A DNA stretch of 1,562 bases from assembly GCA_000004985.1 (NCBI GenBank), contig GG739380.1; one strand, given 5' to 3'. Below, in pieces: positions 3-1,562 of the stretch. The position numbers and the translations under genes are program-made. Below the pieces are notes generated by a model. It worked only from the letters and a program-made list of their open reading frames with translations, was not told where the DNA came from and searched no databases. How positions within the stretch are numbered: position 1 is the first letter of the stretch; each line of letters starts with the position of its first letter. Source of the stretch: Naegleria gruberi (Eukaryota).

Positions 3-395
3 GATTCTTTCAAAAAGAAAGAGTTAACTGAAGAAGAAAAACGAAAGATTGAAGAGAGAAAGAAAGCATGGACTTTAACTTTATTCATGAGATTGTGTAA
101 TGTTTGTGAAGATGAAGCAAGGTATTATTTATCTATACATGATTTCGATTTTAAAGAAGCACTTCAAGAACATAAGAGTGATTTAGAATGGGAGCGAGAA
201 CATAATGAGAAATTGAGCAAAAAGAAGAGAAAGAAGCAAATTGACAATTTTTTAGATGAAAACCCAAGAGTAATGAACATTTTAAGATATTTATCATTTT
301 GCATTCCAAACAACATCAATTCTCGAAAAAAGAACAAGGATGTAGAATTAGATTTGATTCAGGATGATGTGATAGAATATGATAGTGATTATTGA
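3..395 (+). CDS. 3'-terminal part of a protein-coding gene (5' end outside window). C-terminal region has a UBA-like fold motif (LTLFMRLCNVCEDEARYYLSIHDFDFKEALQEH), a basic KKKRKK cluster and an acidic DSDY tail.
   Basis: Frame 3 is open from nt 3 to TGA at 393-395, so the listed ORF 87..395 is only the part after an internal Met. Codon usage is consistent with coding (GAA/AAA/AGA/TTG). The L..F..i..v.eeeAryyL....wD...Al pattern recalls UBA-like/TAP-C/p47-N-type three-helix domains, recognised from memory and not searched. An AATAAA hexamer directly follows the stop. Confidence 0.75.
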   Translation, partial: DSFKKKELTEEEKRKIEERKKAWTLTLFMRLCNVCEDEARYYLSIHDFDFKEALQEHKSDLEWEREHNEKLSKKKRKKQIDNFLDENPRVMNILRYLSFCIPNNINSRKKNKDVELDLIQDDVIEYDSDY

Positions 396-401: not shown

Positions 402-852
402 GCAAAATCTTCCTATCATTTTATATCAGTAAGATCTTTACTAATCATATGACTACCTCCAAGAGTGACTCTTGAATCTAACATTTTCTTATTAGAATCT
501 GTTGAAGATTTTTGTTAGTGAAACTATTCGGGATATTGGACCAATCCTCTTTGCATGCAAACAGTTTTCATCCTTGCAATTCAATTTAATTTTATTTCTC
601 ATTGAAAAGAGATTCGAAACTATTTACTGTTAAACCTAACCAATATCTATCCATCCTTAAATTGAAACCTAAACTTGATGGAATAAACTTTTTAACACCA
701 GACAACTTGGCAGCATTTGTGAGTTGAAACATTTTCATGAGAGAGAAATTCTTTTACAATTTGAGATCCAAGATAACCACTGGACCCATTTCAACAGATG
801 GATGCTTTGAGGAGGACATGTTTGATTATAATAAGATTAATCATCCGGAAAT

Positions 853-870
853 AAAAAGAAAATTGGAAAA
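853..870 (-). terminator. RNA polymerase III terminator: T-runs on the minus strand (TTTT CC AA TTTT C TTTTT) directly 3' of the 5S gene
   Basis: + strand 851-870 ataaaaagaaaattggaaaa is TTTTCCAATTTTCTTTTTAT on the coding strand of the 5S gene. Pol III terminates at oligo(T) tracts. The first T4 may be weak, with T4 and T5 backups. Confidence 0.6.
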
Positions 871-989
871 AGACTACAGCACCACAGGTTCCCAAGTTGT
901 CTCCAACCTCAGTACTGATGTGGCTCGACGATGCTTAACTTCTCAAATCGGACGGGATGAGGTGTATTCATCGTGATATGGCCGTAGCC
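871..989 (-). rRNA. 5S ribosomal RNA gene (eukaryotic nuclear type, about 119 nt)
   Basis: Reverse complement reads GGCTACGGCCATATCACGATGAATACACCTCATCCCGTCCGATTTGAGAAGTTAAGCATCGTCGAGCCACATCAGTACTGAGGTTGGAGACAACTTGGGAACCTGTGGTGCTGTAGTCT. It carries the universal eukaryotic 5S signatures CGGCCATA, CCCGTCCGAT, AAGTTAAGC, AGTACT, GGAGAC and GGTGCTGTAG. The 5' GGCTACGGC and 3' GCTGTAGTC ends pair to form helix I with two G-U wobbles. The length is right and T-runs follow immediately. Ends are uncertain by about 2 nt. Confidence 0.9.
893..940 (-). promoter_or_regulatory. Type 1 RNA polymerase III internal control region of the 5S gene (box A-like at about 926-940, box C-like at about 893-910, + coordinates)
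   Basis: 5S positions 50-64 (AGTTAAGCATCGTCG) and 80-97 (GAGGTTGGAGACAACTTG) align with the TFIIIA-bound A box and C box of characterised 5S genes (Xenopus C box TGGATGGGAGACCGCCTG). Assignment is by position and similarity only. Confidence 0.5.
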
Positions 990-1011
990 ATTAGTGTATC
1001 AAAATGTGAAA

Positions 1012-1018
1012 CATAAAT
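1012..1018 (-). promoter_or_regulatory. AT-rich TATA-like element (ATTTATG) about 23-29 nt upstream of the 5S start
   Basis: Minus-strand upstream sequence is tgATTTATGtttcacattttgatacactaat|GGCTACGG. In several fungi (e.g. Schizosaccharomyces) 5S and tRNA genes need an upstream TATA element near -30. The position fits but the sequence is not a canonical TATAAA. Confidence 0.3.
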
Positions 1019-1226
1019 CAACTTCTCACAACTCTCTACCTTTCAAATCAGAAGATGAGAGATAGTAAAGGATAGAGAGCTTGGACACCCATCTCTTTTA
1101 TTAATTTGTTTATGCTGATAATGCTGGGTCGAACATTCCCAAGTTTCCTCAATTAACAATTCTAAACTCTTTAGGAAGAAACACTTACCCTTTCTGTAAT
1201 AATAAAAAAATTAAAAACACAAAAAA

Positions 1227-1562
1227 ATGCCCAAACTTGAAATTTTATCCTTGAGCGAATTTGTAAAACAAAATTCCTCAAATGACAAAATCATCTCGGA
1301 AATTCAATCCACAGTTCATAAAATTTTCACGAATGGTATGATTGATGGAATTCCAAAATATTATTTTAATGAATATTCGGAATTTATTGGATTATTATTT
1401 GGTGATGGATTATTACATACTGTGAAATTTAATTCTTGGATGGCACTGTTTAAGGATTATTTTGGATTTAAAATTCATATTGTTGTCTGGTCTGTTTTGT
1501 GCATTTGTTGGTGGTTGATTGGCATGATTTTGAAAGTTGGTACATTTCAAGTATCAGCAATC
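1227..1562 (+). CDS. 5' part of a protein-coding gene running off the window end (112 codons seen). The predicted product has a strongly hydrophobic, Trp-rich segment (IHIVVWSVLCICWWLIGMILKVGTF), consistent with a transmembrane helix. Function unknown.
   Basis: ATG at 1227 is the first in-frame ATG after a TAA at 1212-1214. Frame 3 is open to nt 1562 with no stop, so it is absent from the ORF track, which lists only complete ATG-to-stop ORFs. A-rich leader aaaaacacaaaaaaATG has A at -3. Translation: MPKLEILSLSEFVKQNSSNDKIISEIQSTVHKIFTNGMIDGIPKYYFNEYSEFIGLLFGDGLLHTVKFNSWMALFKDYFGFKIHIVVWSVLCICWWLIGMILKVGTFQVSAI. Confidence 0.7.
   Translation, partial: MPKLEILSLSEFVKQNSSNDKIISEIQSTVHKIFTNGMIDGIPKYYFNEYSEFIGLLFGDGLLHTVKFNSWMALFKDYFGFKIHIVVWSVLCICWWLIGMILKVGTFQVSAI

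Follow-up and report, generated by a model that had tools for sequence, protein, structure and literature searches.

Introduction

Does the 1,562-nt stretch of Naegleria gruberi DNA considered here (hereafter, the window) carry a small protein-coding gene in its central part, or does the most conspicuous reading frame there merely shadow an RNA gene on the other strand? The original prediction, made without database searches, noted an open reading frame (ORF) of 79 aa at 737..976 of the plus strand, where it does exist and begins with ATG, and regarded it as antisense to a 5S rRNA gene rather than as a protein. The two readings were weighed here using a covariance-model scan, RNA folding, covariation among related copies, protein comparisons, and the published catalog of N. 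gruberi 5S genes. The answer, which is given with high confidence, is that positions 871-989 of the minus strand are one nuclear 5S rRNA gene copy of N. gruberi, solitary in its spacer, and that the overlapping ORF is artefactual. In all likelihood, the window itself is an entire small scaffold from the N. gruberi assembly, and its features are collected in Table 1.

Table 1. Features of the window, in order of position (minus-strand features are read from the higher to the lower coordinate)
Feature	Position	Strand	Remarks
Protein-coding gene, likely 3' end	3..395	plus	open to left scaffold end; annotated start ATG 87
Spurious 79-aa ORF	737..976	plus	ATG start; longest ORF in spacer
Likely RNA polymerase III terminator	853..870	minus	TTTT 870-867, TTTT 862-859, TTTTT 857-853
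5S rRNA gene	871..989	minus	RF00001 match, fold, covariation; 119 nt
Loop E / helix IV-V arm	888..916	minus	strands AGUAC (916-912) and GGGAAC (893-888)
Box C-like segment of putative internal control region	893..910	minus	RNA positions 80-97, GAGGTTGGAGACAACTTG
Box A of putative internal control region	926..940	minus	RNA positions 50-64, AGTTAAGCATCGTCG
TATA-like element ATTTAT (plus strand ATAAAT), candidate	1013..1018	minus	-29..-24 upstream of 5S
Probable second protein-coding gene, 5' part	1227..1562	plus	112 codons from ATG 1227, open to right end

Identity and Extent of the 5S rRNA Gene

When both strands of the window were scanned permissively with all 4227 Rfam families, a single family, RF00001 (5S_rRNA), gave a significant match. 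The match falls at exactly 871..989 of the minus strand, where it scores 106 bits (gathering score, 38) at an E-value of 7.2e-24, and it spans model positions 1-120 of 120, untruncated and with no non-standard pairs flagged. The original prediction had named this very interval as 5S rRNA and had proposed a covariance-model scan with RF00001 as the means of checking it; the full-length, highly significant match bears out the call. The reverse complement of the interval is 119 nt long, begins with GGCTACGGCCATATCACG, and ends with GGTGCTGTAGTCT (in full, GGCTACGGCCATATCACGATGAATACACCTCATCCCGTCCGATTTGAGAAGTTAAGCATCGTCGAGCCACATCAGTACTGAGGTTGGAGACAACTTGGGAACCTGTGGTGCTGTAGTCT), and the 5S sequence quoted in the prediction is present there as given. 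The ends reported here are those of the Rfam alignment, with the mature ends being uncertain by ~1-2 nt.

Base composition sets the gene apart from its surroundings. The G+C content is 50.4% within the gene vs. 30.1% in the rest of the window, and a 100-nt profile reaches its maximum of 0.48 over positions 901-1000, so that the G+C-balanced island described originally is real. No tRNA genes and no second or tandem copy of the 5S gene were found in the window.

Secondary Structure and Covariation

The minimum free energy structure of the 119-nt RNA is a three-way junction, formed by helix I, a helix II-III arm, and a helix IV-V arm. Its free energy is -41.2 kcal/mol (z -3.1), a stability attained by none of 200 dinucleotide shuffles, and the centroid structure is identical to it. 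The three-helix junction with helices I-V that had been anticipated for this RNA was thus recovered, and all 39 of its pairs are kept in the eight related copies described next.

Covariation was assessed in an alignment of eight copies, namely that of the window and seven related loci (L001-L007), with a mean column identity of 93%. The consensus fold of the eight copies comprises 39 pairs in the same five helices, all of which remain intact in every complete sequence; across the five distinct sequences, 191 of 191 cells (100%) can pair. When the 3' partners were slid by 1-3 columns as a control, pairing fell to 28-45% and no compensatory pairs were seen, and the covariation score of the true alignment was reached by none of 500 shuffles. 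Four compensatory pairs are found, in helices I, II, and IV: C3-G116 is replaced by U-A in helix I, A19-U59 by G-C in helix II, and two neighbouring pairs of helix IV change from C-G to U-A and from A-U to G-C. The sample is small, consisting of five distinct sequences from close relatives, and the covariation therefore backs the Rfam result rather than serving as stand-alone evidence. The only private difference of the window copy is A25, where all seven other copies have G, and it converts a G-U pair into an A-U pair, with pairing kept.

Loop E, the second structural hallmark for which the prediction had suggested a check, is likewise present. The eukaryotic loop E motif, judged here on sequence, lies where helices IV and V meet, with an AGUA strand facing a GAA strand. 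Both of its strands in the window copy, AGUAC (RNA positions 74-78) and GGGAAC (97-102), align with loop E in the Rfam consensus, and both are invariant in eight of eight copies.

Likely Terminator and Promoter-Like Elements

In the type-1 paradigm of RNA polymerase III (Pol III) transcription, represented by the 5S genes of Xenopus and yeast, TFIIIA binds the internal control region (ICR), TFIIIC, TFIIIB, and Pol III follow, and transcription terminates at oligo-T. By analogy, Pol III would transcribe the window gene from a type-1 promoter composed of the ICR (box A and the box C-like segment), probably complemented around -29 by a TATA-like element, which would place TFIIIB. Transcription would then stop in the T-runs that start directly after the last base of the gene, and the RNA would take the universal three-helix junction fold and enter the large ribosomal subunit.

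The T-runs that the original prediction had noticed after the gene are there (Table 1), and they fit oligo-T termination. Moreover, 3-5 T residues immediately follow the last gene base in 11 of 11 related copies examined, and the joint chance of a T-run at a fixed position in 11 copies is ~1.6e-17.

Within the gene, promoter boxes were sought with the degenerate consensus sequences given in PMC3369914. Box A is an exact match to N(G/C)(C/T)(C/T)AANC-N7 and is unique in the gene; its function as part of a promoter would follow from what holds in other eukaryotes. The box C-like segment is the best match to its consensus in the gene, with 2 mismatches in 18 positions, and is invariant in eight relatives except at position 83, which is G or C by lineage; the same segment is also part of helices IV-V. 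Finally, the consensus of the intermediate element matches at 10 places within the gene and is too degenerate to be informative.

Upstream of the gene, ATTTAT at -29..-24 is a candidate promoter element, although it is no more than a hexamer rich in A and T within DNA of like composition. Seven of the eight copies with enough upstream sequence have, within -40..-12, a run of 6 nt or more made up of A and T alone, against a background rate for such a run of 0.23-0.50 per contig (~0.5 for the window). The upstream flanks are otherwise unrelated between copies, with an anchored identity of 19-39%, and no conserved upstream sequence beyond the A/T-rich run was established among these copies, which are too few for motif analysis; searching metagenomes for a 32-nt core of the 5S gene added only one further locus (L008). 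Short words are nevertheless shared by particular pairs of copies. The loci L009 and L010 have a 19-mer, AATTGTTTATTGAGGTGAT, in common at equal distance from the gene (-34..-16), and the window (997-1006) shares ATTTTGATA with L005 at -16/-17 upstream of the 5S gene. Such words could represent an upstream promoter element or the trace of a recent duplication.

Whether TFIIIA takes part in this scheme is a separate matter. According to PMC3369914 (Table 1), N. gruberi has TFIIIB, TFIIIC, and four Pol III-specific subunits, but TFIIIA is entered there as not found, and the TFIIIA step of the paradigm is therefore unsupported for this organism. One could conceive that Naegleria 5S genes are driven mainly by a gene-external element, consisting of the TATA-like A/T run near -30 and the short shared upstream words, and that they dispense with TFIIIA altogether. 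The hints in this direction are thin, comprising the TFIIIA reported as missing (PMC3369914), the A/T element of seven in eight copies, and the shared words. Against them stands an intact box A, and a promoter of this kind is considered rather unlikely. TFIIIA is, moreover, a factor notoriously difficult to detect by sequence. If true, however, the proposal would imply a simplified, TFIIIB-centred mode of 5S transcription in a free-living heterolobosean.

The 5S Gene Family of N. gruberi and the Status of the Window Copy

A catalog of putative 5S genes in the JGI assembly of N. gruberi, compiled by BLASTn, contains 279 entries, and these genes were described as having an internal control region, an upstream TATA box, and T-runs (Xin et al., PLoS One 2012, PMC3369914). 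One row of its Table S1, R33355, lists a gene on scaffold_912 at 870-986 with a similarity of 0.758 (PMC3369914). Its coordinates lie within 1-3 nt of the window gene, and R33355 is probably the window copy, the match being one of coordinates alone; the high number of scaffold_912 also suggests a small scaffold. Most rows of Table S1 have a similarity of 0.75, or 90/120, whereas R33355 has 91/120, a value that a single-base variant such as A25 could account for. The window gene is thus an ordinary member of a universal and already catalogued gene family, to which the present analysis adds, beyond the published BLASTn search, a covariance-model score and evidence from covariation. Since 5S rRNA is universal and the N. 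gruberi genes were catalogued in 2012, the identification as such carries little scientific weight.

How the family is arranged in the genome deserves a brief comment. Table 1 of PMC3369914 scores the N. gruberi 5S genes as tandem ("Y"), while the coordinates in its Table S1 are spread over very many scaffolds, and the nearest neighbours noticed there are ~1.1-1.5 kb apart (e.g., scaffold_23, 33781/34885). The description "dispersed, loosely clustered" seems to suit these genes better than "tandem". Nothing further on the organization of Naegleria 5S genes was found in the literature beyond PMC3369914.

In a family of ~279 members, some may be silent, and it is fair to ask whether the window copy could be a pseudogene, that is, an extra copy with an intact sequence that is decaying, not transcribed, or not used in ribosomes. 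Its private A25 would be in keeping with this, as would its place in the minority class of Table S1 (if it is R33355), which differs from most rows by one position. The copy is, however, full length and, in contrast to L005, shows no truncation or indel, all of its pairs are intact, including that of A25, and its bit score equals or exceeds those of most relatives. The T-run terminator, box A, and the upstream A/T element are all in place as well. Taken together, these features make a silent or decaying copy quite unlikely, and expression of the window gene is presumed here by analogy with 5S genes elsewhere.

A second alternative to a resident gene is a 5S-derived mobile element, such as a SINE-like or retroposed copy. 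The wide dispersal of 5S copies over many scaffolds and the unrelated flanks of the individual copies would be expected of such an element. On the other hand, the similarity between copies stops exactly at the gene ends, with no 3' tail, A-rich tract, or additional conserved body, and the flanks of the window gene were found to have no direct repeats. Solitary, dispersed 5S genes are, moreover, normal in several protists and fungi, including Acanthamoeba with ~100 of them (PMC9528979). A mobile origin is accordingly judged very improbable, and the window copy is best regarded as a resident 5S gene.

The Antisense Reading Frame

The last 35 codons and the stop codon of the 79-aa ORF (871-976) run antisense to the 5S gene, and the case for a protein has to be judged in this light. 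No Pfam family matches the ORF at an E-value of up to 1. In an exact-sequence look-up, no encoding contig was on record for either this ORF or the left one. The 79-aa ORF is not recorded as a called or annotated gene, and no full-length identical protein exists among 5.8 billion proteins, whereas the left neighbour has one. The claim that the RNA gene was hidden, or masked, by the ORF consequently concerns the six-frame ORF track from which the prediction started and nothing beyond it, the recorded proteins lacking this ORF.

The only relatives of the ORF are ten proteins (P0002-P0011), with E-values from 8.7e-13 to 3.3e-7. All are domain-free singletons of 54-132 aa, called by gene finders on ENA metagenome contigs (assemblies ERZ27315067, ERZ929261, and ERZ2098899). 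With the exception of the initiator methionine, all invariant residues of their alignment lie at or beyond K45, the codon of which (869-871) lies at the 3' edge of the 5S gene. Nothing in the relatives corresponds to residues 1-44, and their N-termini are unrelated and of varying length.

The loci behind these proteins explain the pattern. An antisense 5S gene lies directly under the ORF in all seven relative loci scanned with Rfam (91-105 bits), and L009 and L010 contain the same full 5S gene by sequence, which confirms a 5S gene under the ORF for nine of the ten relatives; in L011, the exact 32-nt core had no match. One relative, P0007, is particularly instructive. It diverges from the others after the residues GR, where two extra nucleotides in loop C of its 5S gene make the ORF continue in another frame, and conservation is therefore at the nucleotide level and not at the protein level.

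The 79-aa ORF is thus an antisense artefact and not a gene, as had been maintained from the outset, and the conservation as a protein that would have spoken against a 5S-only reading is not what the unrelated N-termini and the seven antisense 5S loci show. A real small protein overlapping the RNA gene, which its ATG, its rank as the longest ORF of the spacer, and the ten database proteins resembling its C-terminal half might suggest, has virtually no chance of being correct, given a similarity that begins at the edge of the 5S gene, domain-free metagenomic singletons as its sole relatives, a frame that shifts with an RNA indel, and its absence from the recorded N. gruberi proteins, among which its neighbour is present. 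The G+C-balanced 5S gene is stop-free in one antisense frame, which happens to extend into the A+T-rich spacer.

For annotation, an rRNA feature belongs at 871-989 of the minus strand and no CDS at 737-976. More broadly, ENA metagenome assemblies contain at least ten cases in which this antisense frame of a heterolobosean 5S gene was taken for a protein. False proteins of this kind can seed spurious "families", for which the remedy is the masking of rRNA prior to gene calling.

Neighbouring Genes and Other Candidates on the Scaffold

The 5S gene stands alone in an 831-bp spacer between two plus-strand protein ORFs. The left ORF, read from ATG 87, is 100% identical to an NCBI entry, "predicted protein [Naegleria gruberi]", the one item on public record for the scaffold in the protein collection. 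No stop interrupts its frame up to the left edge of the window, so that the annotated protein of 102 aa likely represents the C-terminal part of a gene truncated where the scaffold ends. Its UBA-like match is weak (E 3.4e-4) and falls slightly short of the Pfam threshold, and the gene is convergent with the 5S gene. The right ORF, which is divergent from the 5S gene and begins 237 bp away from it, is probably the 5' part of a protein-coding gene, as judged by the length of its open frame in DNA of 25-30% G+C. No Pfam match to it and no homolog among 5.8 billion proteins were found. It is possibly an unannotated, lineage-specific gene, and has a hydrophobic C-terminal stretch.

Two kinds of further RNA candidates were considered and rejected. 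The first, at 767-848 of the minus strand and directly downstream of the 5S gene, weakly resembles snoR127, a family of plant C/D-box snoRNAs; it scored 21.9 bits vs. a gathering score of 37 (E 0.26) and is attributable to chance; it includes a C-box-like word, AUGAUUA, but no CUGA D box was seen, and the downstream flanks of related copies are unconserved. The second comprises three short 5S-like fragments in the spacer, at 700-719 (plus), 1136-1150 (minus), and 1038-1059 (minus), which individually are at chance level (E 0.17-1.3). Two of the three copy the same box C segment (AGACAACTTGG / GAAACTTGGGAA).

Among the related loci, L005 (ENA ERZ929261 k127_101776, 1-1354) is a Naegleria-like metagenome contig of 1354 bp with a 5S gene at 470-590 of the minus strand. 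Three complete tRNA genes and a fourth that is cut share the contig with it, which makes this a dense cluster of Pol III genes; the loop C of this 5S carries a 2-nt insertion, and its score is lower, at 92 bits.

Comparison with Known Systems

Spurious protein predictions over rRNA genes are a known class of artefact in automated annotation. The present case resembles them in that an ORF antisense to a conserved rRNA has repeatedly been called as a protein, in the form of the ten ENA singletons. It differs in that the ORF of the window comes only from a six-frame track and is not among the public N. gruberi proteins.

With the type-1 Pol III genes of Xenopus and yeast, the window gene shares an exact box A at +50, a box C-like segment at +80, oligo-T directly after the gene, and a matching length and fold. 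Differences are found in box C, with its two mismatches in 18 positions, and in TFIIIA, which a published table gives as not found for N. gruberi. The TATA-like element upstream of the window gene may also play a part, as in several non-vertebrate 5S genes.

In terms of organization, a close parallel is offered by Acanthamoeba castellanii, in which the ~100 dispersed 5S copies are located across most chromosomes (PMC9528979). As in the window, these are solitary copies among protein-coding genes, unlinked to the 18S-28S unit. The two organisms belong to different eukaryotic supergroups, and the likeness is one of organization only.

Finally, the closest comparison is with the N. gruberi 5S genes already described (PMC3369914). 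The published genes are said to be tandem, whereas the window copy is solitary; in every other respect compared, the correspondence is direct, with the same organism, the same gene, and the same ICR, TATA, and T-run features.
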